64,000 bases of DNA from Acidimicrobiia bacterium (lineage in GTDB: Bacteria > Actinomycetota > Acidimicrobiia > Acidimicrobiales > Bin134), in contig JAJECA010000050.1 in NCBI GenBank assembly GCA_022822265.1, forward strand, positions 152,890-216,889. Reading direction: 5' to 3'. Shown piece after piece: positions 23,233 to 39,335 of the stretch (positions are counted from its first letter, which is position 1; every line of letters starts with the position of its first letter). Made by a program: the position numbers and the translations under genes. The notes beneath the pieces are model-generated. The model made no database searches. It saw only the letters and a list, made by a program, of their open reading frames with translations, and was not told the origin of the DNA.

Positions 23233-23313
23233 GCTTTGAGGGTACTTGCTGTTTCGAGTTTTTCCGCGCCACCCAGGGTGCCTCCGCGCCCTGTCAGCGG
23301 GCACACTTGAAGC

Positions 23314-23733
23314 GTGCTGGAATCCATCGCCCTACGCCGGGCGCTGTTGGTGGTCGCGGCCTTGATGGGCGCCGCGGCCATCTTGTTGGCGTTGTTTCTG
23401 GCCGACACCGATGACAACGACGTGACCGTTACCGGCAATGCCGCGGTGGACGAGCTCATCCCCCCTCGCAATGCAGAGGTTCTCTCCCAGGAAACCGTGG
23501 GCATCGACTTGGCCATCGGCTACGACGCCCGCCTGGTCATCAACGGGGTGGAGATTCCGCCCGCTCAGATTCGCCATTTCCCCAATCTCAACCGGTTCAC
23601 ATTCCGGCCTGACCAGGGCAAGGCGATCGAAAGCCTGCGCGCCGAACAGAATTGCGCCCAGGTGACCTACTGGCGCCAAGAGGCCGGCCCCACAGAGGCC
23701 GACACCATCTCCTGGTGCTTCTCTGCGTCCTAG
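23314..23733 (+). CDS. Hypothetical membrane-anchored/exported protein
   Basis: N-terminal hydrophobic helix, beta-rich domain, two C-terminal Cys. Confidence 0.7.
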   Translation: MLESIALRRALLVVAALMGAAAILLALFLADTDDNDVTVTGNAAVDELIPPRNAEVLSQETVGIDLAIGYDARLVINGVEIPPAQIRHFPNLNRFTFRPDQGKAIESLRAEQNCAQVTYWRQEAGPTEADTISWCFSAS

Positions 23734-24257
23734 TCGGAAGGCTCTTCCGGCTGCACCCCTCCGTCGAGAGACCGCAGGGATGCCTCCAACGTGCGCAAAT
23801 AGGCCGCGAATTCCTCCGACTCCCCGTCCCGCAACCACTCCAGACGGGCCCGCTCGCGTGCCAAGTGTTCGCCCATGAGACGGTCGATGAGGTCTTTGCC
23901 CTCGGGGCTGAGCTGGGCCATCATCACCCGGCGGTCGTCGGGGTCAGGCACCCGACGCACCAGATTCAGCTTCTCCAGCTGGTCCACCCGACCGGTCATT
24001 CCCCCGGAAGTGAGCATGGTCATAGCCGCCAGCTCACTGGGCTTGGCTTGAAAGGGAGCGCCGTTTCTCCGCAACGCCGCCAGCACGTCGAACAAACCCA
24101 GGGTAAGGCCATGCGGACGGAGAAAATCAGTCATCGACTGCTCGAATAAGCGGTCGATACGGGAGATGCGCCCGAAGATCCCGATGGGCGATGCGTCCAA
24201 ATCGGGGCGCTCGCTGGCCCATTGCTCCAGAATCGAGTCCACTCGGTCGTGGGTCAT
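23730..24257 (-). CDS. MarR family regulator, UrtR/TamR/PecS-like
   Basis: DRVDSILEQWASERPDLD N-terminal helix with Trp, FDVLAALRR, TSGGMTGRVDQLE, PDPDDRR. Confidence 0.9.
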   Translation of the reverse strand: MTHDRVDSILEQWASERPDLDASPIGIFGRISRIDRLFEQSMTDFLRPHGLTLGLFDVLAALRRNGAPFQAKPSELAAMTMLTSGGMTGRVDQLEKLNLVRRVPDPDDRRVMMAQLSPEGKDLIDRLMGEHLARERARLEWLRDGESEEFAAYLRTLEASLRSLDGGVQPEEPSD

Positions 24258-25495
24258 GTCAACTCCTCCAGCACCGTCCCGATGGTGTCGGCTACTCGGT
24301 CCACCTCAGTAGTGGTGAATGTGAACGGCGGGTAGATGCCCAAGTGGTCGGCTTGTGCCCGCACCAGTACCCCGGCTGCCTGGATGCGCCTCTGGGCTTC
24401 CGCCACCAGCGGCTCCGGATTGTCTGCGGCCAGTTCCACCGCGGCCAGCATCCCCTCGCCGCGAACCTCGGCCACCACTGGCAGGGAATCCAAACTGCCT
24501 ACCCGCTCCTGAAGGTGCCGACCGGTCTGGAGGCTGTGATCCACTAGGGCCTCCCGCTCGAGGATCTCAATCACCTTCAGCCCGGCGACGCAGGCCGCGG
24601 GATGGCCGCTGTAGGTATAGCCGTGCATCAGCTCGATTGAGCCTTCTGGATCGACGAACTCCTCATGAATCCGGGTGCTGGCAATGGCCGCCCCCATCGG
24701 GATGTAGGCCGACGTCAACCCTTTGGCCACGGTCATGATGTCGGGAACCACTCCGTAGCGGTGACCCCCGAACCAGTAGCCCAGCCGACCGAATCCGCAG
24801 ACAACCTCATCCAGGACCAGCAGCACATCGTGGCGGTCGCACATCGCCCTGACCTCGGACAAATAGCACTCCGGGGGCGGATAGACCCCTCCCGCGGCTT
24901 GCACCGGCTCCATGATCACCGCGGCGATGGTGCTCGGATCGCGAAAGGCCAGTTCCCGTTCCAGCGCGTCGATGTCGTGGGCCGGGACTTGGGTGCAGCC
25001 CTCCAGCAGGGGTCCGAACCCCGACCGGTTCTCGGTGAGGCCGCCTACTGATATCCCCCCGAAGTTCATGCCGTGATAGCCCCGATGCAGCGACACGAAG
25101 CCGGTCTTGGACGCCTGACCGATACGGCGCCAGTACCCGCGGGCGATCTTCATGGCGGTCTCGACTGCTTCGGAACCTGAGTTGGTGAAGAACACGTGGT
25201 TCAGGTCGCCCGGGGTTCGGGCGACAACCGCCTCAGCCAGCTCCTCGGCCCGAGGGTGGCTGTATCCGAACAGGCAGTGGTACTCCAGGGTACGCAGTTG
25301 TTCGCTCACCGCCTCGGCGATCTCGGTTCGGCCGTGTCCCAGGATCACACAGGCCACACCCCCGGCGGTGGCATCGAGCAGCCGGTTTCCGTCGTCGGTC
25401 TCCACATAGTTGCCATCGCCGGCCACCACCACCGGAGGCCTGCTGCCACCCGCCGAGGTGAAGGGCATCCACAATGGGGCAGTGTCGCTGCTCAT
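24254..25495 (-). CDS. Class III aminotransferase (omega-amino acid/beta-alanine:pyruvate-like)
   Basis: LWMPFT, FFTNSGSEAVETAMK, GYHGMNFGGISVGG, DEVVCGFGR, AKGLT, HGYTYSGHP. Confidence 0.92.
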   Translation of the reverse strand: MSSDTAPLWMPFTSAGGSRPPVVVAGDGNYVETDDGNRLLDATAGGVACVILGHGRTEIAEAVSEQLRTLEYHCLFGYSHPRAEELAEAVVARTPGDLNHVFFTNSGSEAVETAMKIARGYWRRIGQASKTGFVSLHRGYHGMNFGGISVGGLTENRSGFGPLLEGCTQVPAHDIDALERELAFRDPSTIAAVIMEPVQAAGGVYPPPECYLSEVRAMCDRHDVLLVLDEVVCGFGRLGYWFGGHRYGVVPDIMTVAKGLTSAYIPMGAAIASTRIHEEFVDPEGSIELMHGYTYSGHPAACVAGLKVIEILEREALVDHSLQTGRHLQERVGSLDSLPVVAEVRGEGMLAAVELAADNPEPLVAEAQRRIQAAGVLVRAQADHLGIYPPFTFTTTEVDRVADTIGTVLEELT

Positions 25496-26283
25496 GGCCC
25501 GCTCCGGGCATCCCGCCACGCCAGCAGTGACTCCAGTTCTTCCATCCGATAGTCGGGGCCCGACCGGACCAAGATGAGGTGCTCAGCCCCGGCCGCCGCG
25601 TAGTCGTCGTAGGTGGAATCGCTAGCAATCTCGAACAACGCCACCGTTCGCTCCACCTTTGCCGGGTCGCGTTCGGCCCGCTCGCACCATTGGTCCAGCA
25701 CCCCGTTGAGGTGGGCGATCTCTTCGGGAGTGCCCCACCCGTTCCAGGCATCGGCTAGGCGAGCGCACACGTCCAGGGTCATCCGCTCCCCTAGCCCGCC
25801 GACCAAGATGGGAAGCGGCCCCACCGGCCCGGGCCTTAGCTTTTCGAGCCGTCGGCGGATGCGATGGATGGCGACCTCCATCTCGCGGATCCGATCGGCA
25901 TCGCCGGACATTGCATACCCGTAGGAGTAGTAGTCCTGCTCCAGCCAGCCCGAGCCCAGGCCGAGCACCACTCGGCCTCCAGATGCGTGGTCCACCGTGC
26001 GGGCCATGTCGGCCAGCAGGTCGGGGTTGCGGAATCCGGTGCAGGTGACCAGCGGGCCGATCTGCGCCCTGCTGGTGACTGACGCCATGGCGGCCAGGGT
26101 GGACCAGCACTCAAAGGCGGTGCCGTCAGGGTCTCCGTCAATGGGGAAGAAGTGGTCGAACGTCCAGATGCTGTCAGCCCCGGCCTCATCGGCGTAACGC
26201 CATGCGGCCTCCATCTCGTCCCAGCTCACATGGTTGGGCCGGATCTGGACTCCCACACGCGGCGGCATCTCAATCTCCTTCAT
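25492..26283 (-). CDS. LLM-class (probably F420-dependent) oxidoreductase
   Basis: WTFDHFFP, ECWSTLAAMA, FRNPDLLADMARTVDHASGGR..GLGSGW. Confidence 0.9.
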   Translation of the reverse strand: MKEIEMPPRVGVQIRPNHVSWDEMEAAWRYADEAGADSIWTFDHFFPIDGDPDGTAFECWSTLAAMASVTSRAQIGPLVTCTGFRNPDLLADMARTVDHASGGRVVLGLGSGWLEQDYYSYGYAMSGDADRIREMEVAIHRIRRRLEKLRPGPVGPLPILVGGLGERMTLDVCARLADAWNGWGTPEEIAHLNGVLDQWCERAERDPAKVERTVALFEIASDSTYDDYAAAGAEHLILVRSGPDYRMEELESLLAWRDARSGP

Positions 26284-27085
26284 GAGACGCGGCCAAACCG
26301 GTGATGAGCGACACCAGCTTTTGGGCGTCGGTGCTGTGGGCGTCCAAAAGCTCGATGAGCTGCCCCCGGCGCATCACCGCGATCCGGTCGGCGAGGCGGA
26401 ACACCTGGTCGAGGTTGTGGCTGACCACGATTATGGTCAGCTTGCGCTCTCGCAGTGTGGTGATGAGGTCCTCCACCCGGGCGGTCTCGGCGATACCCAG
26501 CGCGGCGGTGGGCTCGTCCATGATGATCACCTCGTTGCCCCAGTTCATGGCCCGGGCGATGGCCACTCCCTGACGCTGACCCCCGGAGAAGTGCTGAACA
26601 GGGATGCGGACAGAGGGAATCTTGATATTGAGCCGCCGGATGATCTGCTCGGTGTCCCGCCGCATGGCCCGACGCCGCAGAAAGGTGAGCGGCCCCCACC
26701 CCACCTTGAGCTCCCGTCCCATGAATAGGTTTTGGGCGGCATCCAGATTGTCGGCCAGCGCCAGGTCTTGGTACACGGTTTCAATGCCCGCTGTCCGGGC
26801 ATCCAGCGGAGAGCGGAATCGGCGGGTCTCACCGTGCAGCACCACGCTTCCCGCGTCGGGCTGCTCCGCTCCGGAGATCACCTTCAACAGAGTGCTCTTG
26901 CCGGCCCCGTTGTCGCCGACAATGGCGGTGAGCGTGCCGGCGGGGAAGTCCAGCGACACGTCGCGGAGGGCAACCACTCCTCCGTAGCGCTTGTGGATCC
27001 CCGAAACGCTCAGCGCGATATCCGGTGACTGGGAATCCTCAGAGCGGGGGGATTCGACTGCCGATCCAGGCTGGCCTGCGGTCAT
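26270..27085 (-). CDS. Sugar-type ABC transporter ATP-binding protein (single NBD)
   Basis: GDNGAGKS, IETVYQDLAL, FSGGQRQ, MDEPTAALG, SHN. Confidence 0.95.
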   Translation of the reverse strand: MTAGQPGSAVESPRSEDSQSPDIALSVSGIHKRYGGVVALRDVSLDFPAGTLTAIVGDNGAGKSTLLKVISGAEQPDAGSVVLHGETRRFRSPLDARTAGIETVYQDLALADNLDAAQNLFMGRELKVGWGPLTFLRRRAMRRDTEQIIRRLNIKIPSVRIPVQHFSGGQRQGVAIARAMNWGNEVIIMDEPTAALGIAETARVEDLITTLRERKLTIIVVSHNLDQVFRLADRIAVMRRGQLIELLDAHSTDAQKLVSLITGLAASHEGD

Positions 27086-29403
27086 GATCTGGCTCCCTGC
27101 AATTGGTCGAACAAGTAGTAAGGCGACACGGGCACTTGGTTCACCTCGATGCCGAGGCCGCCCAACGCGTCTTCGACGGCGTTGGCCACAGCCGCCGGCG
27201 GCGAAATCGCCCCCGCCTCTCCCACGCCCTTGATGCCCAATGGGTTGAGCGGCGAAGGCGTCTCCAGGTGGGCGACGGCCAATTCAGGCACCCCGGCGGC
27301 GTCGGGCACCAGATAGTCGGCCAGGCTGGGGTTCTGGGGCTGCCCGTCGGCGTCGTAGACCGCCTGCTCGAACAGCGCCGCTCCGATCCCCTGGGCCACT
27401 CCTCCGGCGATCTGGCCGTCCACGATCATGGGAGAAAGCAGCGGTCCGCAATCATGGGCGACCACGTAGTCGAGGATCTCCACCGCTCCCGTGGACGGAT
27501 CGACCGCAACCCGTGCTGCGTGCACTCCGGCAGCAAAGGTGACCGTCGCCGGCTCGAAGCAGACCATCTCGTCAAGTCCGGGGGTGCTGCCGTTGGCAAA
27601 GTCGCCTCCGGGGGCGAAGCCTTCAGCGACTTCGGCCAGCTCCATGCGCCGGGTCGGAGTTCCCACCACCTCCACCACGCCGTTGTGGATGCGCAGGTCG
27701 GCGGGGGCCAGTTCCCACCGCTGAGCCACTGCGTTGACAATCCGGTCTCGCAGCACCCCGGCAGCCTCGTGGATCGCACTGCCGGCCACCACCGCGCTTC
27801 GACTGGCCAGAGTGCCCCATCCATACTCGACTGCGGCAGTGTCGCCCCCGATCACCGTCACGCGTTCAGGGTCGGCGCCCAGCGCTTGGGCGCACACTTC
27901 AGCGAACACGGTCTCGTGTCCTTGGCCCTGAGAACAGGCACCGGTTGACACCTCGACCCAGCCGGTCTCATCAACCCGAACCCGGGCGCTCTCGAACGGT
28001 CCGACCCCTGTTCCCTCCACATAGGTGGACACACCGACGCCGACCAGTCGGCCGGCTTCATCCGGCGCCCCTCCCCGGAGGCCGTCGGCCATATTGCCCA
28101 TGGCCATAGCCGCCTCGAAACAGCCGGAGAAATCACCGCTGTCGTATGTCATGGGCGTGCCATCCCGATAGTTGAGGCCGACGGTATAGGGCATTTCCTC
28201 GGCCCCGATTAGGTTTCGACGGCGAAGTTCTACCGGGTCAATGCCCATCTCTCGGGCGGCGACGTCGATGATGCGGTCCATGGCAAAGACGGCTTCAGGT
28301 CGGCCCGCTCCCCGATAGGGCGAGATCGGGGCTTTGTTGGTCACTACTGCGGTGGCCTCCACATCCAGCGCCGGCACCCGATAGCACCCGCACAGGTGGG
28401 CCAGCGTGTTGTAGGGCTGGACCACGCCCAGTGGATTGGCCGCTCCGTTGTCAACCACGAATCGGTCGCGCACCCCCAGTATGCGGCCGTCGCCGTCGAG
28501 GGCTAGTTCGATGTCGTGGATCTGGTCTCGGGAATGGATGGCGGCCAGGCCGTGCTCGCTTCGCTGCTCGACCCATTTGAGAGGGACTCCCATCTCCAGC
28601 GCCAGGAAGGCCATGACCAGTTCTTCGGCGTAGGGAATGGCCTTGACGCCGAATCCGCCGCCCACGTCGGGGGCCACAACCCGGATTCGGTGAGCTGGTC
28701 TGCTTAGCGACTTGGCCAAGGCGGTGCGCAGCGGATGGGGAATCTGAGTGCTGCTCCACACCGTGAGCAGATCGGTGCGGGGATCGTTTTCGGCCACCAC
28801 GCCCCTCGGCTCCATAGGGTGACAAGCCAGTCTGCCCGAGTGCAGGCGGCGTCGACTGACATGGGCGGCTTCGGCGAAGGCGCTGTCTGTGTCGCCGAAA
28901 CCGGCGGCCACGAACAACGAGCGGTTGTCGGGCCAGTGGTCATACAGCCGGGGAGCATCATCGGCCAGCGCGGCGAAGGGATCGACAACCGGCGGACGGG
29001 GAGCCAGGTCTAGAAGAACCCGATCAGCTGCGTCTGCTGCGCCATAGGGGGTGTCGGCGATCACCACGGCAATGGGGTCGCCCACGTGCCGTACCCGGTC
29101 TACCGCAAGCAGCGGCCGACCTTCATGGCGTACAAACAGCCGCTCGTCGCCCAGCGTCTCCAGCAATTTGTCCTGGTAGACGCCACCATCGGCCTCGTTG
29201 GGCGCCATCGTGTCGATCCGTCCGACCAGATCCGCGCCGGTCCAGCCGACAACCTCCGAGGGAAGCTCCACCCCGTTCACGTCGGCGTGAGCCACAGGAC
29301 TGCGCACGAAGGAGACATACCGCATCGACGGAAGCTCGATATCGGCCACGTAGCGTCCGTCGCCCCGCAACAGCCGGGAATCCTCCCGCCGCAGTGTCTT
29401 CAC
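27082..29403 (-). CDS. Xanthine dehydrogenase/CoxL-family molybdopterin-binding large subunit
   Basis: RREDSRLLRG.G.YVAD, PMEPRG, STQIPH, DVGGGFG.K, PYRGAGRPE, QGQGHET, GIKGVGEAG; GTGA overlap with the upstream gene. Confidence 0.93.
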   Translation of the reverse strand: MKTLRREDSRLLRGDGRYVADIELPSMRYVSFVRSPVAHADVNGVELPSEVVGWTGADLVGRIDTMAPNEADGGVYQDKLLETLGDERLFVRHEGRPLLAVDRVRHVGDPIAVVIADTPYGAADAADRVLLDLAPRPPVVDPFAALADDAPRLYDHWPDNRSLFVAAGFGDTDSAFAEAAHVSRRRLHSGRLACHPMEPRGVVAENDPRTDLLTVWSSTQIPHPLRTALAKSLSRPAHRIRVVAPDVGGGFGVKAIPYAEELVMAFLALEMGVPLKWVEQRSEHGLAAIHSRDQIHDIELALDGDGRILGVRDRFVVDNGAANPLGVVQPYNTLAHLCGCYRVPALDVEATAVVTNKAPISPYRGAGRPEAVFAMDRIIDVAAREMGIDPVELRRRNLIGAEEMPYTVGLNYRDGTPMTYDSGDFSGCFEAAMAMGNMADGLRGGAPDEAGRLVGVGVSTYVEGTGVGPFESARVRVDETGWVEVSTGACSQGQGHETVFAEVCAQALGADPERVTVIGGDTAAVEYGWGTLASRSAVVAGSAIHEAAGVLRDRIVNAVAQRWELAPADLRIHNGVVEVVGTPTRRMELAEVAEGFAPGGDFANGSTPGLDEMVCFEPATVTFAAGVHAARVAVDPSTGAVEILDYVVAHDCGPLLSPMIVDGQIAGGVAQGIGAALFEQAVYDADGQPQNPSLADYLVPDAAGVPELAVAHLETPSPLNPLGIKGVGEAGAISPPAAVANAVEDALGGLGIEVNQVPVSPYYLFDQLQGARS

Positions 29404-31594: not shown

Positions 31595-32679
31595 GGGACG
31601 ATCACCGGCTTCATCTCAGCACCGGCTTTCATGGCGGCCAACGCATCAGTCACCTGATCCAGGGAATAGGTGTTGGAGCACACCGCTGATTCCAGCCCCA
31701 TCTTGGCGCTGTGCCGGTCCAAGAACCGGAGGGCGTCGTGGAAGTGGGAGATGTCGGCCGAAAGTGAGGTCCGTACCGTGAGCTGGCGAACCTTCATGGC
31801 CGTGGTCGGCACGGGAACGGTTTTGCCATGGGCTTGGCCGATGACCATTAGCGTGCCGCCGGCGCGCACCATCTCCATACCCTCGGTAAAGGCATCGGGT
31901 GGCCCCGCGCATTCGATCACGAAGTCGGCACCCCGGCCCGCTGTCATGCTGCGGACCGCTTCGATTCTCTCTTCGGGCTCGGTGTCATCGATGTCGATAC
32001 GGGCAGCCAGATCCCATGATTCGGTGGCGGCCAGCCGGGATCGGGGTGCACCGATGAGGATCACCTGGTTGGCCCCGCTTCGCAGGGCCGCCGCTGCGGC
32101 CAGAACCCCGACTGGACCTGCCCCGAGAACGACCACCGTGTCGCTAAAGCGAATGCGGGGCATGCGGTCGAGGGCGTGCATGACTGTGCGCAAGGCACAG
32201 GTGGCCGCTGAGGCCAGCGGGCTGGTCACGCCCTCGGGCACCCGCAGTACCCGAGAATCTGGCGACACGTGGAGGTGTTCGGAGAACGTCCCGTTGACCG
32301 CACCGTCCTCATAGGGACCCCACCCGTATCCCATGGTGTTTTCACACAGAGTGGGCTGTTTGGCCACCGCGCAGAAATAGCACCGCCCGCACCAATTGTG
32401 AGCCCAGACGATGCGGTCACCGGGTCGAAGCGGTTCGCCCACAGCGTCGCTCTTCAGACCTTTGCCCAGCTCCACCACAGTTCCGGTGCCCTCATGGCCC
32501 AATATCAGCGGCAGACGAGCCAGTTGATCGAAGACGCCGTCGCATATGTGCACGTCGGTCCCGCACACGGTCGCGGCGTCCATCCGCACCAGGGCGCCTC
32601 CCGGGAGAACCGGACCGAGCTCCAGTGTCTCCACCGCGGGACCGTCGGCGTAGTCGGCCAGAATCACAGCCCGGCTCAT
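31591..32679 (-). CDS. Zinc-dependent medium-chain alcohol dehydrogenase
   Basis: CGTDVH, GHEGTG, CGRCYFC..C structural Zn, GAGPVG. Confidence 0.92.
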   Translation of the reverse strand: MSRAVILADYADGPAVETLELGPVLPGGALVRMDAATVCGTDVHICDGVFDQLARLPLILGHEGTGTVVELGKGLKSDAVGEPLRPGDRIVWAHNWCGRCYFCAVAKQPTLCENTMGYGWGPYEDGAVNGTFSEHLHVSPDSRVLRVPEGVTSPLASAATCALRTVMHALDRMPRIRFSDTVVVLGAGPVGVLAAAAALRSGANQVILIGAPRSRLAATESWDLAARIDIDDTEPEERIEAVRSMTAGRGADFVIECAGPPDAFTEGMEMVRAGGTLMVIGQAHGKTVPVPTTAMKVRQLTVRTSLSADISHFHDALRFLDRHSAKMGLESAVCSNTYSLDQVTDALAAMKAGAEMKPVIVP

Positions 32680-32731
32680 GGTGACCAATCCTCAGTCACC
32701 ATGGCTTCCCAATTCACCAGAGTCGTCCAAG

Positions 32732-33175
32732 TCATCCCGGAGCCTCCCGCCATATCGGACCGCGTTCGACAACCGGATCAAGCAGGCCCTCGGCCACCCA
32801 CTCGGTGTAGGCGAAGGGGTCATAGGCTTTGGCCACCTGGCCCGGATACCCGATCAGCTCGCGTACCACCGGGCTGAGGTAATAGCACGCCGCCACCGAG
32901 GTAGTGAGCGCGACATAGGCATCTTCGTCCTCCTCGTGAAGGGCCGATAGCCGGTCGATGGTGAACGAGGACGGATCAAGCGCGTCCACCGCCCGGACCA
33001 GGGGCTCACGTAGATCATCGCGCCAGCCCAGGACTTGAGGCAGATAGGACTCCACTGCCTCAACGTCAGAGACGGCGGGCATCCCGTGGGCGGCGGGCAG
33101 CATCACGTCGGCCAGGGCGATCAGCCGGCCGATATCGATTTCGCCAGTCGATGCCGACGATGCCGGCGCGGTCAT
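32732..33175 (-). CDS. Gluconate 2-dehydrogenase subunit 3-like small partner of the GMC enzyme
   Basis: LADVMLPAAHGMPAVS, YYLSPVVRELIGYPGQ; coupled to the GMC gene. Confidence 0.7.
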   Translation of the reverse strand: MTAPASSASTGEIDIGRLIALADVMLPAAHGMPAVSDVEAVESYLPQVLGWRDDLREPLVRAVDALDPSSFTIDRLSALHEEDEDAYVALTTSVAACYYLSPVVRELIGYPGQVAKAYDPFAYTEWVAEGLLDPVVERGPIWREAPG

Positions 33176-34782
33176 GCCGGAACTTTCTGCTCGCTGCGGT
33201 GCTGAACCAGCAGGTCAGCAGTCCGCAGGGCCAGCGCGGTGATCGTGCAGGTTGGGTTGACCCCGGAGCTGGTCACGAACACGCTGGCATCGGCGATGTA
33301 CAGGTTGGGCACATCGTGGGCCTGCTGGCGGGAGTTGACCACAGAGTTCGCCGGTTTCTCACCCATGCGGGCAGTGCCCATTAGGTGCCATCCCGAGTAG
33401 GGGATCATGCTGGCTACCGCGGTTTCCTGGCATCCCGAAGCCTCCAGCGATTCTTCGGCCCGCTCTTCTTGGAAGGCCATTAGGCGCCGCGAGTGCTCAG
33501 AGATCCGATAGCTCACCCGGGGTGCGGGGATTCCGTGGCTGTCGGTGCGATCCAGATCGAGCTCTACTCGGTTGGCCTCCTCGGGAAGATCCTCCCCGAA
33601 AATGGCCCAGCTTGCCCCCCGTCCGAAGGTCTGGCCCATGAGGACGTGATGATCACTCCCCCACACCTCGTTTCCGGCTCGCATGGGCAGGATGTGGTTG
33701 AGGGGTCCGCCAACCGGCGAGAGCGCCCACTTGGCCCCTCGGACAAAATCTCGGCAGGGATCGGTCTCGTAGAACTGGTAGCTGGTGATGCTGGCCCCGA
33801 AGTGACCCTGCCATCCCTCTACCTGGTCGTCCCACCACCCCGTCACCACCGAGAAGGGGTGCATCATGAGGCGGCGGCCGACAAGGCCGCTGGAGTTGGC
33901 CAGACCATCAGGGCAGTGGCGGTCGTCGGCCGACAGCAACAGGAGGCGCGCCGTACCCACCGCGTTGGCCGCCAGGATCACCACATCGGCCTCTTGGTGG
34001 TGCTCGACTCCGGAGCGGTCCAGCCAGACAGCTCCGGTGGCCAACCCTTGAGACCCCAGCGTGATCCGGCTCACCCGAGCCCCGGTGATCAGCCGGGCTC
34101 CGGCGGCGGTGGCCTTGGGCCAGTGGGTTAGATCAGTGGAGGCCTTGGCCCCCTCGGCGCATCCCGAAGTGCAAACGCCTCGCTGCACGCATGGCCGCCT
34201 CCCGTCGTAGGGAGCCGACAAGATGGCGTTGGGCTCGGGCCACCAGTGCCATCCCAGCTGGTTGTGCCCCTCGGCCACCCGCCGGCCCGCCACCCCCAGG
34301 GGCAGCGGCGGGAGCGGATAGTCGTCGTGGGGCGGATAGGCCGGATCCCCGGCCAATCCAGACACGCCGATCTGCTGGTCGATGGCGTTGTAGTACGGAA
34401 CCAGATCCCGGTAGGCGATGGGCCAGTCGTCGGCCACACCGTCCAGCGTCCGAATCCGGAAGTCCGACGGGAGCATCCGGGGCCACGTCCCGGCGTAGAT
34501 GATCATGCTTCCCCCCACCGCGTTGTACATGAGGGGCTCTATGTCCGAATCGTCGTGAACCACCGGATAGTCCTCGGGCCGCATCCGCACGTTGGGGCTC
34601 ATGGCCCAGTCCTTGCGGATGGCCAGCTCCCAGTCGGGCCTGGTGCCAGGGAACGCGGACCTATCGGGCCAATCGCCCTGCTCGAGGCAGACAACATCGA
34701 AGCCGTGCTCGGCCAGGTGGCGTGCAGCCACCCCACCGGAGGCACCGGCACCGATGATGAGGACGTCGGCCCGATAGGTCAC
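33172..34782 (-). CDS. GMC family FAD oxidoreductase
   Basis: IIGAGASG, VGGSMIIY, DWPIAYRDLVPYY, CxxxGxCxxGC, HLMGTARMG, NLYIADASVF..NPT. Confidence 0.93.
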   Translation of the reverse strand: MTYRADVLIIGAGASGGVAARHLAEHGFDVVCLEQGDWPDRSAFPGTRPDWELAIRKDWAMSPNVRMRPEDYPVVHDDSDIEPLMYNAVGGSMIIYAGTWPRMLPSDFRIRTLDGVADDWPIAYRDLVPYYNAIDQQIGVSGLAGDPAYPPHDDYPLPPLPLGVAGRRVAEGHNQLGWHWWPEPNAILSAPYDGRRPCVQRGVCTSGCAEGAKASTDLTHWPKATAAGARLITGARVSRITLGSQGLATGAVWLDRSGVEHHQEADVVILAANAVGTARLLLLSADDRHCPDGLANSSGLVGRRLMMHPFSVVTGWWDDQVEGWQGHFGASITSYQFYETDPCRDFVRGAKWALSPVGGPLNHILPMRAGNEVWGSDHHVLMGQTFGRGASWAIFGEDLPEEANRVELDLDRTDSHGIPAPRVSYRISEHSRRLMAFQEERAEESLEASGCQETAVASMIPYSGWHLMGTARMGEKPANSVVNSRQQAHDVPNLYIADASVFVTSSGVNPTCTITALALRTADLLVQHRSEQKVPA

Positions 34783-34818
34783 GTTCGCTAGCAGTGGTTC
34801 ACCGGAGGGAGAGGTTCC

Positions 34819-35814
34819 CTATCGGAGGTCGGCGTTGGTCATACCTTCGATCGTGTCGGCATCCACCACGAAAGTGGGCGCCTGGATGAAGTAGCCCTGG
34901 CCGGTGCTGCCGGTGGTCAGGTACTGGTGGGCGACCTCGGCGGTCTGCCAACCCCACTGGTAACCCCTTAGGGCGATGGTCATGTCAACGCCGGATCCAG
35001 CGCGGATCTGGTCGAACACCGCCGGCTCGCCGTCGGTCCCGCTGATGAGGATGTCGGCGTGGTCGATGCCGGCCTCCTCCACTGCGGTAGCGGCGCCCAA
35101 GGCCAGAGCATCGCTGTCTGCCCAGATGCCGTCGAGATCGGGATTGGCGGTCAAAGCGTCCTGGGCCAGGCGGAGGCCCTCCTCAGCGGTGAAGCTGTTG
35201 GCGCTCTGGTTGAACACAACCTCGATGCCGGGGTTGTTCTCCATGGTGTGCTCGAAGCCCTCTCGGCGCTTCTCCACATACTCGCTGGCCCCCGGGCCGC
35301 CGATACGGGCGATCTTGCCCGAACCGCCGAGTTGTTCAACCATCCACTCGCTCTGCTTGGTGCCCTCAACACCCCAGTCGGTGCCGATGAAGCCGATCTC
35401 GGGGGCAGCCTCCTGCACACTGTCACCAGTGGACAGCATCGGAATGCCGGCTGCCGCCGCGGCTTCATAGGCGGGAATGAGCGCCTGGCGGTCGCCTGGC
35501 GAGGCGATGATGAGGTCGACCCCTTGAGTGACGAAGTCCTCGATCTGTGCCACTTGGTCCTCGATCACGTATGCCGCGTCGGCTGCGACGAAGTTCCAGC
35601 AGTTCTGAGCGCCGAACTCGGCCAAGCCGGCTTCAAGATCGCGGAAGTACAGGATGAAAGTCGCCAGATTGGCGTACCGCACCTCGTAGATCTCCTCGCA
35701 GCCTCCTTCTCCTGACGCGGCGTCGTCGTCATCGTCGTTTCCGCATGCCGACACCACCAGCCCAAAGGCCAACAGCAGCGCCAGCAGCTTGAACAACAGG
35801 TTCTTGGTTTTCAT
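34819..35814 (-). CDS. Sugar-type ABC substrate-binding lipoprotein (RbsB-like)
   Basis: Lipobox VSAC, QIEDFVTQGVDLII, AQDALTANPDLDGIWADSDALALGA, GTDG. Confidence 0.9.
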   Translation of the reverse strand: MKTKNLLFKLLALLLAFGLVVSACGNDDDDDAASGEGGCEEIYEVRYANLATFILYFRDLEAGLAEFGAQNCWNFVAADAAYVIEDQVAQIEDFVTQGVDLIIASPGDRQALIPAYEAAAAAGIPMLSTGDSVQEAAPEIGFIGTDWGVEGTKQSEWMVEQLGGSGKIARIGGPGASEYVEKRREGFEHTMENNPGIEVVFNQSANSFTAEEGLRLAQDALTANPDLDGIWADSDALALGAATAVEEAGIDHADILISGTDGEPAVFDQIRAGSGVDMTIALRGYQWGWQTAEVAHQYLTTGSTGQGYFIQAPTFVVDADTIEGMTNADLR

Positions 35815-35833
35815 TGTGCTCCCCTCCGGGTAT

Positions 35834-36979
35834 TCATGGTTGCTCCGACGTCGATTCGGCCGATTGCCCGGCCTGCTCAACGCCTTGGAGTTCTTGGTCT
35901 GTCGAACGGGCTGATTGCTCGGCCAGCTCGATGGCACGGCGCTCCTCATCAAGCTCGTGCTCGACTTCTACTTCTATGGCGGTGTCCTCACTTCGGTTGG
36001 CCCACCGGTCCAAGTAACGGCGCAGGAATTGCGATGTCATGGCCAGCACGAAAACGACGCCCAGCCATACGTCCTGCATGTTGGAAGACACATTGAGCAG
36101 GTTGAGGCTGTTGCGAATCACCCCGATCAGCAATACGCCGGCCAGGGTGCGGGGTATCGACCCCCGCCCTCCGAACAGATTTGTGCCTCCCAGCACGACG
36201 GCGGCCACCGCGTAGAGCTCGGTAAGCACCGCGGCATTCGGCTGGCCGACGTTGACCCGCCCCAACAATGTGAAGCCACCGACGGCAACGGCGAGGCCCC
36301 CCAGGACAAAAACCGTGACCCGTACCCGGGTGACGTTAATGCCGGCTCGGCGGGCTGCTTCGGCGTTTCCCCCCACTGCGTAGATCCGCAGTCCGAATCG
36401 GGAATAGCGTAGGATCACGTGGTAGACGACGCCGAGTCCCAGCGCCACCCAGATGGGCATTCGCAAGCCGATGAACTCCCCGCTCCACCAGGCCTTCCAG
36501 CCTCCGGGGAGATTCCCCACCGTGTTGCCCGCGGTTATCTCCCGGGCCAGCCCCCTCGCCATGATCAAAAGGCCCAAGGTGGTGATGAAGGAGGGGACTT
36601 TGAGCACCGCGGTAACTAGCCCGTTGAACAGCCCTGCGGCGATGCCGACGCCCACTCCGGCCAGCAGGCCGAGCACGATGCTGTTGTTCCGCACCATGGT
36701 CTCGGCGGCCACCACCCCGATGAGGGCAAGCACTGACCCCTGGGACAGGTCCAGCTCGGCCGCGATGATGACCAGGGTCATCCCGAAGGCTGCGCAGGCC
36801 AGAAATGACGTTTGCAGAAGGATGTTCTGGAGGTTGCCCGTGGTCAGGAACACGTCGGACTTGACGGTCATCACCGCGCCCAAGACGATGACGACGAAGA
36901 TTGCGAACCCGGCCTCAACCACCCGGGGAATGGCTACACGGATCCTGTCCCAGCCCATCGCGACCGCGGGTTCCGTCAT
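35834..36979 (-). CDS. Sugar-type ABC permease (RbsC-like)
   Basis: GMTLVII..LDLSQGS, VPSFITTLG, YAVGGNAEAARRAGI, AAVVLGGT. Confidence 0.94.
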   Translation of the reverse strand: MTEPAVAMGWDRIRVAIPRVVEAGFAIFVVIVLGAVMTVKSDVFLTTGNLQNILLQTSFLACAAFGMTLVIIAAELDLSQGSVLALIGVVAAETMVRNNSIVLGLLAGVGVGIAAGLFNGLVTAVLKVPSFITTLGLLIMARGLAREITAGNTVGNLPGGWKAWWSGEFIGLRMPIWVALGLGVVYHVILRYSRFGLRIYAVGGNAEAARRAGINVTRVRVTVFVLGGLAVAVGGFTLLGRVNVGQPNAAVLTELYAVAAVVLGGTNLFGGRGSIPRTLAGVLLIGVIRNSLNLLNVSSNMQDVWLGVVFVLAMTSQFLRRYLDRWANRSEDTAIEVEVEHELDEERRAIELAEQSARSTDQELQGVEQAGQSAESTSEQP

Positions 36980-37743
36980 GGGGCCACCCTCTGCCTCGAC
37001 TCTTCGCGGTGGGCTTCGATGCCCTCGACCACCAAGTCGACCAAGGCGTCGAGGTAGCGCTCTCCTGCGACCGCGGTGGCCCCGCGGGGATCGCCGATGA
37101 TGCCCACCGGAGAAAGGGCGGCCATGCCCTCAGAGCGCAGCTTGGCGCTGGCCGAGGACGCTGGCCCGACGTGGCCGACAACAGCGGACGCCATGTCTAC
37201 GTGGTCGGGGGCGATGGCCAGCATGATGCTGGTCTCGAAGTGCCCGCCGTGGGTTCCCACCAACTCCCTGTCCAAGCCCAGTTGGTTCTCGGCCACTTGA
37301 TGTACGGCTTCACGCTGGGCAGGCCAGTCGTCGAACGACACCACCCGGGAGCGTTCGGCGGCATCCAGCTCGCCCATGGCCGAGGCCATGGCTCCAACGT
37401 TTCCGGCATGCCCGGTAACCAGGTAGGCACCCCGGAAACCGTGGCTTACCAGGGTTTGGATTACCTCCACCAAGACGCTCCCGAGAGTCGCTTCGCTGAG
37501 GCTGGCCGTGCCGGGAAATGTCAGATGGTGGCTGGAGGCGCCAACGGAAATGCAGGGCGCCACCATGCACTCTCCCACTCTTCGGGCCGCTCGGTCGGCC
37601 ACTGCCTCGGCGATCTGAGCGTCGGTGTCGAGGGGCAGATGCGGACCGTGCTGTTCAAGTGCGCCCAGGGGAACCATCACATCCAGCGGACCTCGCTTGA
37701 GCCGCTCATCCAGAGCCGTCCAGCTCAACTCCCCCAGCCGCAC
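36976..37743 (-). CDS. Creatininase family amidohydrolase
   Basis: PLGALEQHGPHLPLDTD, GASSHH..FPGT, GHAGN, HGGHFETS, GIIGDP. Confidence 0.92.
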   Translation of the reverse strand: MRLGELSWTALDERLKRGPLDVMVPLGALEQHGPHLPLDTDAQIAEAVADRAARRVGECMVAPCISVGASSHHLTFPGTASLSEATLGSVLVEVIQTLVSHGFRGAYLVTGHAGNVGAMASAMGELDAAERSRVVSFDDWPAQREAVHQVAENQLGLDRELVGTHGGHFETSIMLAIAPDHVDMASAVVGHVGPASSASAKLRSEGMAALSPVGIIGDPRGATAVAGERYLDALVDLVVEGIEAHREESRQRVAP

Positions 37744-37750
37744 AAGTGCC

Positions 37751-38230
37751 TCAGAGATCGGTGAGGGTGGCGTCGAGATAGGTGGGCTTCTGTGGGCGAC
37801 CCACGCCGATCACCACCTGCACCTGGGCTTCCTCGTCAGTGTGGTTTCGCAAGCCGTGCATGATCCCCGCAGGGCTGTAGATCATCTCCCGCTCTTTCAG
37901 CACGGTGTCGACGATTCTCCCGTCGTCGTCCTCCCACCATGCAGTCAGCTCCCCCTTGACCACGAAGAAGACCTCTTCCACTTCGTGGGCATGCGACGGG
38001 GCCACGGCCCCAGGGGGCATCATCATCACCGACAAGGTGAAATTGTCGGCCGTGACTGTTCCAGGCTCGTAGTGCTTGCCGGTGATGCTCGCCCCCACCA
38101 TCCGCACGTGGGCCCGGCGGTACTCCTCCTTCAGGTCTCCCTGAGCGGCAAACGGCTCCCAGTCCAGTTCCTTGCTCCCGTACCGCTGAACATGCTCGAA
38201 AAACTCGGCTTCAGTGAATTCACTCGCCAT
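37751..38230 (-). CDS. Cupin domain protein
   Basis: HAHEVEEVFFVVKG and PAGIMHG cupin motifs; AGGGGG RBS. Confidence 0.88.
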   Translation of the reverse strand: MASEFTEAEFFEHVQRYGSKELDWEPFAAQGDLKEEYRRAHVRMVGASITGKHYEPGTVTADNFTLSVMMMPPGAVAPSHAHEVEEVFFVVKGELTAWWEDDDGRIVDTVLKEREMIYSPAGIMHGLRNHTDEEAQVQVVIGVGRPQKPTYLDATLTDL

Positions 38231-38262
38231 GCTCGTCCCCCCTAGTTGCTTCAGCGCTGGGT

Positions 38263-38279
38263 ATCTTAGTTTCAAAGTT
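38263..38279. promoter_or_regulatory. Imperfect palindrome overlapping the putative -10 of the catabolic operon (candidate MarR operator)
   Basis: ATCTTAG-TTT-CAAAGTT, an AT-rich island in GC-rich DNA; contains minus-strand TAAGAT (38268-38263), 32 nt upstream of the cupin ATG. Confidence 0.5.
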
Positions 38280-38322
38280 TTGTCGGCGCTGAGGGGATGC
38301 CTTTCCGGGGGTTGGCCGGCCG

Positions 38323-39210: not shown

Positions 39211-39308
39211 TACAGCACTTCAGACCACTGGCGAACTCATCTGGCATCAGTTTCAATCGCCAAATCAACGTGACACTGCCACCGACGCCTGCGTTCGCAA
39301 ATTCAAAC

Positions 39309-39329
39309 TGTCACTGTCGTCGGTAGACT
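39309..39329 (+). promoter_or_regulatory. Leaderless promoter of the DUF222 gene with a PafBC/RecA-NDp-like element
   Basis: TGTCAC-N9-TAGACT-N6-ATG39336; the mycobacterial consensus is TGTCGG-N10-TANNNT, so the match is imperfect. Confidence 0.4.
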
Positions 39330-39335
39330 GGTGGC

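Follow-up and report, generated by a model that had tools for sequence, protein, structure and literature searches.

A conserved 14-gene operon with a UrtR-type regulator gene that seems to degrade a polar nitrogen-ring compound in an Acidimicrobiia bacterium

The UrtR-type regulators described in one published study control efflux, virulence or uricase genes, and their published operator consensus is T-N2-CT-N8-AG-N2-A. In Mycolicibacterium ELW1, IbcH, IbcI and IbcJ have been assigned to the oxidation of 2-methyl-1,2-propanediol to the aldehyde and then to the acid. Relatives of both systems are found in one gene cluster at positions 23730 to 38230 (minus strand, as for all features below) of the window, i.e., the whole stretch of 64,000 nucleotides of Acidimicrobiia DNA analyzed in this study. 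The first-pass annotation had listed here 14 co-oriented genes in the order cupin, creatininase family, ABC permease, substrate-binding protein (SBP), GMC, small subunit, Zn-dependent alcohol dehydrogenase (Zn-ADH), aldehyde dehydrogenase (ALDH), class II aldolase, Mo large subunit, ABC ATPase, luciferase-like oxidoreductase (LLM), class III aminotransferase and MarR. The open reading frames bear out this order, and Pfam assigns 13 of them to the families given there, the exception being the small subunit of 147 residues. The junctions are also as claimed, with sizes that depend on the chosen start codons. Eight of them overlap by 4 nt (creatininase/permease, GMC/small subunit, Zn-ADH/ALDH, ALDH/aldolase, aldolase/Mo with GTG at 29403, Mo/ATPase, LLM/aminotransferase with ATG at 25495, and aminotransferase/MarR), ATPase/LLM overlaps by 14 nt, and the remaining gaps are 7, 19, 36 and 43 nt, the last becoming 52 nt if Zn-ADH starts at ATG 32679 and not at TTG 32688.

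The synteny check named in the first-pass annotation found copies of the block in both related and divergent loci. All 14 genes are present in the same order in 21 of 29 related genome loci; six of the others are truncated by contig ends, and two full-length loci lack only the LLM and aminotransferase genes. The gene order is kept on metagenome contigs whose proteins are only 52 to 75% identical and whose GC content ranges from 45 to 64%, including L041, L043 and L044 (aldolase identity of 69%, 68% and 55%; GC of 61%, 64% and 45%, respectively). In all five same-genus genomes without the cluster, as judged by a missing aldolase gene, the block is absent between the same two flanking genes, which are 0.6 to 2.2 kb apart there versus 15 kb here, and one of these genomes retains the MarR gene alone. 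The order kept in related and divergent loci, and the presence or absence of the block as a whole, exceed what chance would give, and the block behaves as one unit.

The last gene of the operon (23730 to 24257, 175 residues; Pfam MarR) encodes what is, judging from its sequence and structural model, a UrtR-type repressor of the uric acid-responsive, urate/xanthine-sensing kind. Among solved structures it matches PecS (8ylh, 104 bits) and MftR (8ylf, 94 bits), whereas the next match outside UrtR scores 46 bits; the six best structural matches of its model are PecS and MftR chains (35 to 42% identity), and it is 42% identical to PecS. An additional N-terminal helix comprises residues 5 to 16. 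All four invariant urate-binding residues are present: Trp13, Asp57, Arg64 and His131 correspond to Trp24, Asp68, Arg75 and His142 of PecS. Further pocket residues align at the same constant offset of 11, with Ile9, Ile25, Phe56, Met81 and Glu135 at the positions of Ile20, Met36, Phe67, Met92 and Glu146. Arg90, Arg102 and Arg110 correspond to the three invariant DNA-binding arginines of PecS, and the regulators encoded by the L041 and L044 clusters share the Trp, Asp, Arg and His residues. In contrast, the two PecS residues in contact with the C8 carbonyl group of bound urate, Arg43 and Ser64, are replaced by Ser32 and Leu53; therefore, the effector may be a compound other than urate itself.

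A palindromic promoter/operator-like element, AAACTTTGAAACTAAGATA, lies upstream of the first gene (38262 to 38280) and contains TAAGAT, which could be a -10 box. The core CTAAGATA is invariant in all 14 aligned upstream regions, that of the distant L041 included, and the half-sites CTTAG and CTAAG form perfect inverted repeats in some loci. The UrtR consensus is matched without mismatch in L041 and with one mismatch in L027 and L039, and it does not occur in its strict form near the cluster of the window, where the CT and AG pairs are separated by 9 nucleotides as opposed to the published 8.

The enzymes between these regulatory elements are assigned by family resemblance, and all score under the cut-offs of function-specific NCBIfam models, except for the LLM subfamily model and a misleading MftE model. 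The GMC protein (33172 to 34782, 536 residues; GMC_oxred_N/C) is predicted to be the catalytic subunit of an FAD dehydrogenase of the FAD-glucose/fructose dehydrogenase type, with 6a2u_B (2.3e-69) and the large subunit of fructose dehydrogenase (1.5e-57) among its solved matches and a Cys-x5-Cys-x3-Cys motif conserved in six of six sequences. Its probable small partner (32732 to 33175) has no match in Pfam or NCBIfam; its nearest ESM-Atlas clusters are annotated as the gluconate 2-dehydrogenase subunit 3 family (score of 0.96 to 0.97), and it is 28% identical to the product of an Agrobacterium gene downstream of the GMC gene of that organism. The GMC protein, the small subunit and the ALDH are 51%, 34% and 40% identical to IbcH, IbcI and IbcJ, respectively, and would fit an alcohol-to-acid module of that type. 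Zn-ADH (31591 to 32688, 365 residues; ADH_N and ADH_zinc_N), a medium-chain enzyme, is nearest to TIGR03366 (171.5 bits, cut-off of 328) and to the solved structure 1vj0 (6e-56). The NAD(P) ALDH (30113 to 31594, 493 residues; Aldedh, 5e-143) does carry the GQSCGSTSR motif reported for it, but no tool result stands behind the PhdK-like reading of that motif, and its best matches are betaine-aldehyde dehydrogenases, all under the family cut-offs.

The class II aldolase-fold metalloenzyme (29400 to 30116, 238 residues; Aldolase_II, non-phosphate subgroup) is a candidate decarboxylase. Among solved structures it is closest to 3-hydroxy-2-methylpyridine-4,5-dicarboxylate (HMPDC) decarboxylase (2z7b, 7e-24, 87.7 bits), aligned nearly end to end (residues 14 to 236). 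It conserves the triad of His-x-His plus His as well as the Glu within PGERF, and the PhtC model gives 122 bits (cut-off of 200). Because pyruvic oxime dioxygenase and NovR are its next solved relatives, it could alternatively be an oxygenase. Two other Actinomycetota genomes encode relatives of about 40% identity next to Mo-hydroxylase genes, and in one of the two they lie amid genes for a hydantoinase, an amidohydrolase and a MarR protein with the UrtR signature.

The Mo hydroxylase large subunit (27082 to 29403; MoCoBD_1/2 and Ald_Xan_dh_C, CoxL/Qor type) is nearest among solved enzymes to quinoline 2-oxidoreductase (QorL, 7.6e-144) and 6-hydroxypseudooxynicotine dehydrogenase (Kdh large subunit, 4.7e-143). 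These N-heterocycle hydroxylases score 484 and 482 bits, compared with 143 bits for the aldehyde oxidoreductase 1sij and 132 bits for PaoC. No gene for an FAD or 2Fe-2S partner is found anywhere in the window. In divergent clusters, coxM- and coxS-like genes lie immediately upstream (an FAD gene in eight of eight loci and an FeS gene in five of five that extend that far), whereas such genes are found there in none of the 31 loci of the window's group, and the genome holds no orthologues of these partners elsewhere (best 39% and 53%). The lineage of the window has thus lost both partner genes, and the Mo subunit is orphaned.

The single-domain, metal-binding cupin (37751 to 38230, 159 residues; Cupin_2, 2.8e-16) best matches the Mn cupin TM1459 family among solved structures, at an E value of only 1e-7 to 1e-6, and its stretches PSHAHEVEE and PAGIMHGLRN are retained in four of four orthologues. 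The creatininase-family protein, a putative metal amidohydrolase (36976 to 37743, 255 residues; Creatininase, 5e-62), conserves EQHGPHLPL, GHAGN and HGGHFETS and matches creatinine amidohydrolase at 9e-26. It also exceeds the cut-off of the MftE model (174.2 versus 172 bits), but a true MftE identity was rejected, as the genome has no MftC (best 52.6 bits, cut-off of 265). The transporter comprises a CUT2-type permease (35834 to 36979, 381 residues; BPD_transp_2, 1.4e-37) nearest to the AraH and RbsC models, all under cut-off; an SBP with the lipobox LVVSAC (34819 to 35814, 331 residues; Peripla_BP_4, 6e-42); and a single-domain CUT2-type ATPase (26270 to 27085, 271 residues; ABC_tran), which matches YtfR, AraG and RbsA over their first halves only, with six enzyme genes lying between its gene and those of the permease and SBP. 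The SBP is divergent and ribose-binding-protein-like: its best solved matches (ribose, monosaccharide and inositol binders) reach only about 100 bits, it is matched at 1e-35 in one of 400 other genomes of a phylum sample, and no match is found on plasmids at 1e-25. An accessory module consists of the predicted F420-dependent LLM (25492 to 26283, 263 residues; Bac_luciferase; TIGR03856, 305.5 bits, above the cut-off of 243.7) and the omega-aminotransferase (24254 to 25495; Aminotran_3, 1e-87; nearest model AptA, 423.5 bits, under the cut-off of 500). A gene for F420 synthesis is present in the genome (473 bits for its CofH domain), and the pair is absent together from L005, L013, L029 and L044.

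From these resemblances we infer, with moderate confidence, a self-repressed operon for the catabolism of a hydroxyalkyl- or hydroxymethyl-substituted oxo-N-heterocycle of the purine, pteridine or pyrimidine type. In this scheme, the lipoprotein SBP, permease and ATPase, a sugar-transporter-like ABC system, would take up the polar compound, the cytoplasmic FAD dehydrogenase and Zn-ADH would convert side-chain alcohols to aldehydes, and ALDH would yield the acid; in clusters with the accessory module, the aminotransferase, with the F420 enzyme, may channel an aminomethyl form to that aldehyde. The aldolase-fold enzyme would remove the new carboxyl group. The Mo hydroxylase, presumably borrowing the FAD and 2Fe-2S subunits of another Mo enzyme of the genome in the window's lineage, would add an oxo group beside a ring nitrogen, and the urate- or xanthine-like product could derepress the operon through a pocket apparently shaped to hold uric acid or a similar oxo-heterocycle. 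The cupin and the creatininase-fold amidohydrolase would open and hydrolyze the ring. The broad sequence proposed in the first-pass annotation (import, oxidation of hydroxymethyl or aminomethyl groups to acids, decarboxylation, Mo-dependent ring hydroxylation and ring opening) fits the closest characterized relatives, with the reservation that its decarboxylase may be an oxygenase, and the UrtR-type regulator with its full effector-binding signature lends independent support to the N-heterocycle class.

Several observations run against this scheme: the transporter is of a sugar type rather than a known nucleobase or vitamin type, the nearest assigned relatives of the GMC pair act on an aliphatic diol and on sugars, and the scheme is further weakened by the scores under function-specific cut-offs, the oxygenases among the relatives of the aldolase-fold protein, the operator spacing, the two unretained PecS residues and the missing Mo partners. 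Given the targets of the described UrtR regulators, urate could also be a signal and not a pathway intermediate. The transporter and the GMC pair would suit the catabolism of a non-aromatic sugar, polyol or cyclitol. Here, the imported polyol-like compound would be oxidized by the GMC pair, Zn-ADH and ALDH to a keto or dicarboxylic acid and cleaved or decarboxylated by the aldolase-fold protein, with the Mo enzyme as an aldehyde oxidoreductase and the creatininase-fold protein as a lactonase or as a hydrolase that cleaves a C-C bond in a cyclic diketone. The nearness of the transport proteins to ribose, arabinose and galactofuranose systems, a 582-bit match of the Mo subunit to the glyceraldehyde dehydrogenase alpha model, and weak matches to the cyclitol pathway (Zn-ADH to IolM, 112.8 bits; creatininase-family protein to IolN, 64.2 bits) agree with this. 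However, both Iol matches fall far short of their cut-offs (450 and 245 bits), and no sugar SBP is closely related to the one encoded here. Pfam detects no kinase, dehydratase or isomerase among the products of the block, the bit scores of the Mo subunit strongly favor N-heterocycle hydroxylases over solved aldehyde oxidoreductases, and the regulator with its complete urate pocket is not a sugar-type repressor; we regard a polyol substrate as unlikely. The regulator would also suit a non-canonical purine end-pathway in which the Mo enzyme converts xanthine to urate, urate is both substrate and inducer, and the cupin, creatininase-fold and aldolase-fold proteins replace uricase, 5-hydroxyisourate hydrolase and OHCU decarboxylase. 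The 94.7%-complete genome has no family matches for uricase, transthyretin/HIU hydrolase or OHCU decarboxylase, nothing in it exceeds the cut-offs for allantoinase or AllC, and the block does hold an oxidase-capable metal cupin, a ring amidohydrolase and a decarboxylase-like enzyme. Such a pathway is nevertheless improbable, since it leaves the GMC pair, Zn-ADH, ALDH, aminotransferase, LLM and sugar-type transporter without a role, the three proteins have no sequence link to the enzymes they would replace (cupin to ureidoglycine aminohydrolase, E = 5e-5 only), and the residues touching the C8 carbonyl are not retained.

The genes might alternatively be a mosaic of neighbors by descent that serve several processes, with urate acting only as an environmental or host signal that triggers a mixed stress or uptake response. 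The published role of UrtR regulators, which coordinate virulence and metabolism and not a single pathway, the independent gain and loss of the accessory pair and the lone regulator in one genome would accord with this, but the eight 4-nt overlaps, the placement of six enzyme genes between parts of one transporter, the persistence of the core order to about 52 to 55% protein identity across a 20-point difference in GC, and the gain or loss of the block as a whole in the five genomes without it, apart from that one regulator, make a mosaic slightly less credible still. Vitamin B6, the lead candidate of the first-pass annotation, we rank last and consider very unlikely. A variant of the Mesorhizobium pathway for pyridoxine or pyridoxamine would explain the protein resembling HMPDC decarboxylase, the pairing of two alcohol-oxidizing enzymes with an ALDH (two hydroxymethyl groups) and the aminotransferase (pyridoxamine), and the ATPase and permease weakly match "putative B6 ABC transporter" models. 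These matches are far under cut-off and below those to sugar models, however; the decarboxylase is the only likeness to a solved B6-pathway enzyme, the 39 solved structures matched by the GMC protein (E ≤ 1e-5) include no pyridoxine 4-oxidase, and a hydroxypyridine would fit poorly into the urate-type sensor pocket, which suits purine, pteridine or pyrimidine rings better.

A literature search by gene set and by organism found no described pathway that matches this gene set, as the first-pass annotation had supposed. The operon seems to take up and degrade a polar compound with a nitrogen-containing ring through a hitherto undescribed pathway, and the complete uric acid-binding signature of its repressor narrows the range of substrates to test.

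The cluster occupies positions 23730 to 38230 of the window and consists of 14 ORFs, all on the minus strand. From first to last, they encode a cupin, a creatininase-family protein (36976-37743), a CUT2-type permease, a Peripla_BP_4 substrate-binding lipoprotein (SBP; 34819-35814), a GMC flavoprotein, a 147-aa protein, a Zn-ADH, an ALDH, a protein with a class II aldolase fold (29400-30116), the large subunit of a molybdenum (Mo) hydroxylase, a single-domain ABC ATPase, a luciferase-like oxidoreductase (LLM), a class III aminotransferase, and a 175-aa MarR regulator (23730-24257). The ORF listing, the Pfam families, which agree with those listed at first reading, and a check of the start codons bear out the co-orientation, families, order, and junctions given in the first-pass annotation. 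After the start-codon check, neighboring genes overlap by 4 nt at eight junctions and by 14 nt at one, and the others are separated by 7, 19, 36, and 43 (or 52) nt. The flanks consist of housekeeping genes (gatB, ilvBNC, PASTA kinase, ligA, mnmA, and ATP synthase). No Rfam match was obtained over positions 23000 to 40000 at E ≤ 1, so that no riboswitch gives a clue to the ligand.

The synteny search that had been suggested as a check showed that the cluster is conserved elsewhere. The aldolase-fold protein was scanned against one genome per species, which gave 29 loci, and the gene content of these loci was determined by tblastn. All 29 belong to metagenome-assembled genomes titled Acidimicrobiia, Acidimicrobiales, "Candidatus Poriferisocius," "marine group Sva0996," or "bacterium." The 14 genes are all present in the order of the window at 21 of the 29 genome loci. 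Two full-length loci (L005 and L029) lack only the LLM and the aminotransferase (i.e., the accessory pair), and six are cut by contig ends, with the part that they hold in order; one of these six (L013) is also without the accessory pair. At one locus, an insertion of approximately 1.8 kb separates the permease gene from the SBP gene (L016:2530-4370). Because the 29 loci are close relatives, with identities of 68 to 100% within the group, their shared order alone says little. Divergent relatives were obtained by a profile scan of metagenome contigs, which gave 10 loci, two of which (L039 and L040) belong to the close group. L041 (aldolase-fold protein 69% identical, GC 61%) contains all 14 genes in order, and the order is kept over the part held by L043 (68%, GC 64%) and L044 (55%, GC 45%). 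L047 and L048 are fragments consistent with the cluster order, and the contigs of L042, L045, and L046 are too short to show the wider order.

In the genus of the window, the aldolase-fold gene is found in 29 of 40 genomes (E ≤ 1e-50). Five cluster-free genomes of this genus were examined, of which four are closed chromosomes and the fifth is assembled in two contigs. In all five, the flanking genes, for the PASTA kinase and a membrane protein of 295 aa, lie 0.6 to 2.2 kb apart, compared with 15 kb in the window. The only gene between these flanks is a conserved 139-aa ORF, except that one genome also has the MarR gene alone and another has a DUF222-HNH gene. These distances and this content show that the block from cupin to MarR has been gained or lost as a whole. 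Outside the genus, an aldolase-fold relative at 1e-30 was present in only 5 of 400 other genomes of a phylum sample, all at most 42% identical and none with the cluster; the best match in a class sample was likewise 42% identical. No more copies of the variant carried by genome G091 were found in its family, and plasmids gave aldolase-fold and creatininase relatives of at most approximately 40% identity and no match to the SBP.

The 139-aa ORF of the window (23314-23733, plus strand) lies between the PASTA kinase and MarR genes, on the strand opposite to the latter. It has a hydrophobic N terminus and no Pfam match. Of the 29 genome loci, 25 have it, conserved at 74 to 90%, and it also occurs in all five cluster-free genomes; it is a real flanking gene outside the operon. 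In two cluster-free genomes of the same genus, the match to the PASTA kinase gene is split in two and contains in-frame stops (G598:C1:1149767-1151791 and G608:C1:242605-244719), which may reflect a pseudogene or an assembly error. The upstream flank of the cluster is adjoined by a DUF222 and HNH endonuclease gene (39336-40703, plus strand), which has nine matches over at least 60% of its length in the genome of the window, itself included, the best other copy being 73% identical. A copy of 50% identity occupies the empty site in G595, a cluster-free genome of the same genus, and another copy is located at the same cluster edge in L022 and L039. These genes look like a mobile family with a tendency to lie close to the indel site.

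Judged from its sequence and its predicted structure, the regulator is a member of the uric-acid-responsive MarR subfamily (UrtR), which includes PecS, MftR, and HucR and is marked by release from DNA in response to uric acid (or xanthine). In comparisons with solved structures, it scores 104 bits with PecS and 94 bits with MftR, versus 46 bits with the next MarR outside the UrtRs. The AlphaFold model (pLDDT 82) has an extra N-terminal helix at residues 5 to 16 and the published order of elements, and chains of PecS (42% identical) and MftR (35 to 37%) make up its six closest structural matches. According to PMC11602129, four residues of PecS do not vary among UrtRs but are mostly substituted in other MarRs: Trp24 on the extra helix (alpha0), Asp68 and Arg75 on helix alpha2, and His142 on helix alpha5. 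With a numbering offset of 11, which was derived from the phmmer coordinates and the crystallized construct (residues 15 to 179), these residues are matched by Trp13, Asp57, Arg64, and His131 of the regulator, whose spacing (44, 7, and 67 residues) is the same as in PecS. At the same offset, Ile9, Ile25, Phe56, Met81, and Glu135 match the pocket residues Ile20, Met36, Phe67, Met92, and Glu146; Arg90, Arg102, and Arg110 match the three invariant DNA-binding arginines (Arg101, Arg113, and Arg121); and Thr83-Ser-Gly-Gly86 matches three of the four positions of the T/S-S-G-T recognition element. The tryptophan is invariant in all 10 regulators, among 11 aligned, whose sequence reaches that position. 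The regulators of L041 (54% identical) and L044 (41%) retain the complete four-residue signature, and Asp, Arg, and His are kept also in that of L051; in one second regulator, in L054, Ala replaces Asp. On the other hand, Arg43 and Ser64 of PecS, which contact the C8 carbonyl of urate, correspond to Ser32 and Leu53, suggesting that the effector may differ from urate on this edge.

A conserved palindromic element (38262-38280) with a CTTAG/CTAAG inverted repeat lies upstream of the cupin gene; CTAAGATA is invariant in all 14 upstream regions aligned. The published UrtR operator consensus is T-N2-CT-N8-AG-N2-A. The palindrome of L041 fits this consensus without a mismatch, those of L027 and L039 differ from it at one position each, and that of the window fits only when the spacer is one base longer (9 nt). 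Matches to the strict consensus are absent near the cluster, and the whole window contains three, versus 4.7 expected by chance.

UrtR genes usually sit beside an efflux pump gene or a uricase gene. The regulator shares with PecS, MftR, and HucR the N-terminal helix, the Trp, Asp, Arg, and His of the pocket, the DNA-binding arginines, and a palindrome upstream of the regulated genes, whereas its gene is the last of a 14-gene catabolic operon and adjoins neither an efflux pump gene nor a uricase gene. The C8 carbonyl-contacting residues of PecS and, in the window, the half-site spacing of the operator also set it apart. If the heterocycle account proposed below holds, this would be, to our knowledge, the first UrtR-type urate sensor within a long catabolic operon, not paired with either of these partners.

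The Mo large subunit is nearest to the large subunits of quinoline 2-oxidoreductase (QorL) and of 6-hydroxypseudooxynicotine dehydrogenase from the nicotine pathway (Kdh), which match over the full length at approximately 1e-143, and it scores below the cutoff of every function-specific NCBIfam model. The active-site loop of form I CO dehydrogenase is VAYRCSFR; identity as a CO dehydrogenase was rejected, since the loop reads SPYRGAGRPE in six of six orthologues and the CO_dehy_Mo_lg score is 439.5 bits against a cutoff of 991. Holoenzymes of the xanthine oxidase/CoxL family combine the large subunit with a medium (FAD) and a small (2Fe-2S) subunit. At the divergent loci, a gene for an FAD-binding medium subunit directly follows the aldolase-fold gene in all eight cases reaching that far, a gene for a 2Fe-2S small subunit comes next in five of five, and both precede the Mo large subunit. 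The two partner genes are absent from the window and from all 31 close-group loci (the 29 genome loci, L039, and L040), and the genome of the window contains no orthologue of them elsewhere, the best matches being 39% and 53%, versus 54 to 83% for the other cluster proteins of L041. The large subunit is nevertheless as conserved as its neighbors (73 to 99% among the genome loci). The same genome gives 16 matches to Mo-hydroxylase large subunits and only 9 to 2Fe-2S subunits, so orphan large subunits seem to be common in it. The loss of the partner genes, the continued conservation of the large subunit, and this excess make it likely that the large subunit in this lineage borrows FAD and FeS subunits from paralogues. 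Thus, the cluster resembles the Qor and Kdh N-heterocycle pathways in its large subunit and, in its divergent forms, in the trio of large, FAD, and 2Fe-2S subunits, but it has no further gene in common with those pathways, and the FAD and FeS genes are gone in the lineage of the window.

The best solved match of the aldolase-fold protein is the HMPDC decarboxylase Mlr6791, the Mn-dependent ring decarboxylase of vitamin B6 degradation (PDB accession number 2z7b; 7e-24, 87.7 bits, residues 14 to 236, i.e., 223 of 238 residues), followed by pyruvic oxime dioxygenase (76 bits, E = 2e-20) and NovR (62 bits). The metal-binding triad of His104, His106, and His167 is invariant in 10 of 10 relatives. 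The aldolase-fold protein has this triad in common with Mlr6791, which acts on 3-hydroxy-2-methylpyridine-4,5-dicarboxylate, and likewise a Glu within the stretch ER(F/Y)(I/M)H; the score is, however, only 87.7 bits, and the two oxygenases of the same fold are nearly as close. Among the phosphate-dependent aldolases and epimerases of the class II aldolase/adducin superfamily (FucA and AraD), the phosphate-binding residues of FucA are Asn29, Thr43, Gly44, Ser71, and Ser72, and its catalytic residue is Glu73 (PMC11841055). Mapped by motif position only, a Glu is apparently kept at the position of Glu73 (PGERF), and the two preceding Ser residues read Pro-Gly. Pyruvic oxime dioxygenases are marked by E < 1e-60 to AfPOD, a conserved N-terminal extension, and the absence of Glu at the sequence position of FucA Glu73 (PMC11841055); membership in this group was rejected because the match is weak by this measure (76 bits, E = 2e-20) and Glu stands where these enzymes have Thr. 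As it keeps the three His residues and also the Glu missing from the dioxygenase, the protein is a candidate decarboxylase in the first place, with an oxygenase possible as the second choice.

In public sources, relatives of the aldolase-fold protein carry the name "L-ribulose-5-phosphate 4-epimerase." Relatives of approximately 40% identity adjoin Mo-hydroxylase genes in two other Actinomycetota genomes. In one of them, the run is LLM, M29-like peptidase, cupin, aldolase-fold protein, FeS subunit, and Mo subunit. In the other, G376, the relative (39% identical) lies in a different island on contig C300 (L051:1-19000 and L054:1-7100), which contains hydantoinase B in two copies, an amidohydrolase, an SBP of the NMT1 type, DUF1989, Mo-hydroxylase L, M, and S subunits, an LLM, and two MarRs, one of which carries the full UrtR signature. 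This island may represent a second uncharacterized heterocycle pathway under the same kind of sensor.

The GMC protein matches the catalytic subunits of FAD-dependent glucose and fructose dehydrogenases at 2e-69 and 1.5e-57, respectively. The 147-aa protein encoded next to it has no match in Pfam or NCBIfam, and its nearest ESM-Atlas clusters are labeled "gluconate 2-dehydrogenase subunit 3 family" (0.96 to 0.97). A Cys-x5-Cys-x3-Cys motif, which we take to bind a 3Fe-4S cluster, is conserved among the GMC orthologues. The catalytic subunit, the adjacent gene for a small partner, and the Cys motif are features of the FAD-dependent complexes of Burkholderia (GDH, alpha and gamma) and Gluconobacter (FDH), whereas the block contains no gene for a cytochrome c subunit and the small subunit has no Tat signal. 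Inspection of the sequences revealed a twin-arginine signal on neither the GMC protein nor the small subunit, and the enzyme is thus probably cytoplasmic. The GMC protein, the small protein, and the ALDH are 51%, 34%, and 40% identical to IbcH, IbcI, and IbcJ of Mycolicibacterium sp. ELW1, in which a GMC protein, a 16-kDa partner, and an ALDH are encoded in a row and in the same order. In PMC13188929, IbcH and IbcJ are assigned to the oxidation of 2-methyl-1,2-propanediol via the aldehyde to the acid (2-hydroxyisobutyrate), and IbcI is called a protein of unknown function; the module comes after an alkene monooxygenase, and its substrate is an aliphatic diol. Unlike the cluster, this module has no transporter, Mo enzyme, cupin, or regulator. 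On an Agrobacterium plasmid, the pair of GMC protein and small protein occurs as well and is followed by an unannotated gene and by genes for an electron-transfer-flavoprotein alpha subunit and an Fe-S protein.

The creatininase-family protein matches Pfam Creatininase over residues 5 to 240 (5e-62). The stretches EQHGPHLPL, GHAGN, and HGGHFETS, in which the metal-binding residues presumably lie, are conserved in four of four sequences. The protein passes the NCBI model of the mycofactocin peptidase MftE by approximately 2 bits (174.2 versus 172); this identity was rejected because no MftC, the mycofactocin radical-SAM maturase with which MftE occurs, was found in the genome, which is 94.7% complete (best score, 52.6 bits against a cutoff of 265). 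Automatic annotation will label the hydrolase "MftE" and give the name "ribulose-5-phosphate 4-epimerase" to the aldolase-fold protein, in both cases probably wrongly. The LLM belongs to an F420-dependent subfamily (305.5 bits versus 243.7), and the organism can make F420.

The most economical account, to which we would give about an even chance, is that of a UrtR-controlled operon degrading a substituted polar oxo-N-heterocycle. The transporter and the operon would handle a ring compound of this kind with a hydroxyalkyl or hydroxymethyl substituent or, in loci that have the accessory pair, an aminomethyl one. The side chain would be oxidized to an acid, decarboxylation would follow, Mo-dependent hydroxylation of the ring would yield a urate- or xanthine-like inducer, and the cupin and the amidohydrolase would open the ring in the last step. 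This proposal stays close to the scheme of the first-pass annotation, in which import, side-chain oxidation, decarboxylation, and ring hydroxylation precede ring opening; what changes is the ring, since the UrtR regulator shifts the balance from pyridines such as vitamin B6 toward purine, pteridine, or 2,4-dioxopyrimidine rings. Vitamin B6 itself is an unlikely substrate: vitamin B6 degradation pathway I of Mesorhizobium loti, considered as a clustered set of homologues, has a single counterpart here, the decarboxylase, and no other enzyme of that pathway appears among the solved (PDB) matches of ten cluster proteins. A sugar, polyol, or cyclitol pathway instead of a heterocycle pathway is rather unlikely; it keeps a minor share of the probability because the transporter is of the sugar type, the GMC pair has diol and sugar relatives, and, apart from those of the LLM subfamily and MftE, all function-specific models score below their cutoffs.

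The heterocycle account can also be stated as an undescribed opening of a urate- or xanthine-like ring (purine, pteridine, or 2,4-dioxopyrimidine), which we regard as speculative and quite unlikely in this form. The aldolase-fold enzyme, the cupin, and the creatininase-fold amidohydrolase would replace uricase, HIU hydrolase, and OHCU decarboxylase (or barbiturase-type enzymes), and the UrtR would sense the product of the Mo hydroxylase. The side-chain module, i.e., the GMC protein with its small partner, the Zn-ADH, the ALDH, and, where present, the aminotransferase, would admit hydroxyalkyl- or aminomethyl-substituted forms such as hydroxymethyl-pyrimidines and polyol-bearing pterins. Uricase (PF01014), HIU hydrolase (PF00576), and OHCU decarboxylase (PF09349) were not matched in the 94.7%-complete genome, and no other canonical urate-pathway gene was found in it. 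A listing of papers on barbiturase and uracil dehydrogenase gave no gene for the Mo uracil dehydrogenase. In the literature searched, which leaves out most subscription journals and which for the genus concerns a coral microbiome, no described pathway matches the gene set, the organisms, or the UrtR control, in agreement with the earlier impression that the gene set is not a described pathway. The parts come from known families, and we could not match their combination and the UrtR control to any described pathway.

The main value of the finding is that the hypothesis is now cheaply testable. The UrtR signature narrows an open-ended search for the substrate to a short ligand panel, for which two soluble proteins (the regulator and the SBP) suffice. 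That the FAD and FeS genes were lost in one lineage beside a conserved large subunit provides a natural test case for subunit sharing among Mo-hydroxylase paralogues. The cluster is carried by 29 of the 40 searched genomes of one uncultured Acidimicrobiia genus, and its divergent forms span a wide GC range on metagenome contigs; the substrate is therefore probably a common dissolved metabolite. If the preferred account of a UrtR-controlled heterocycle operon is true, these organisms would have an N-heterocycle catabolic pathway made up of enzyme folds for which no such role is known.
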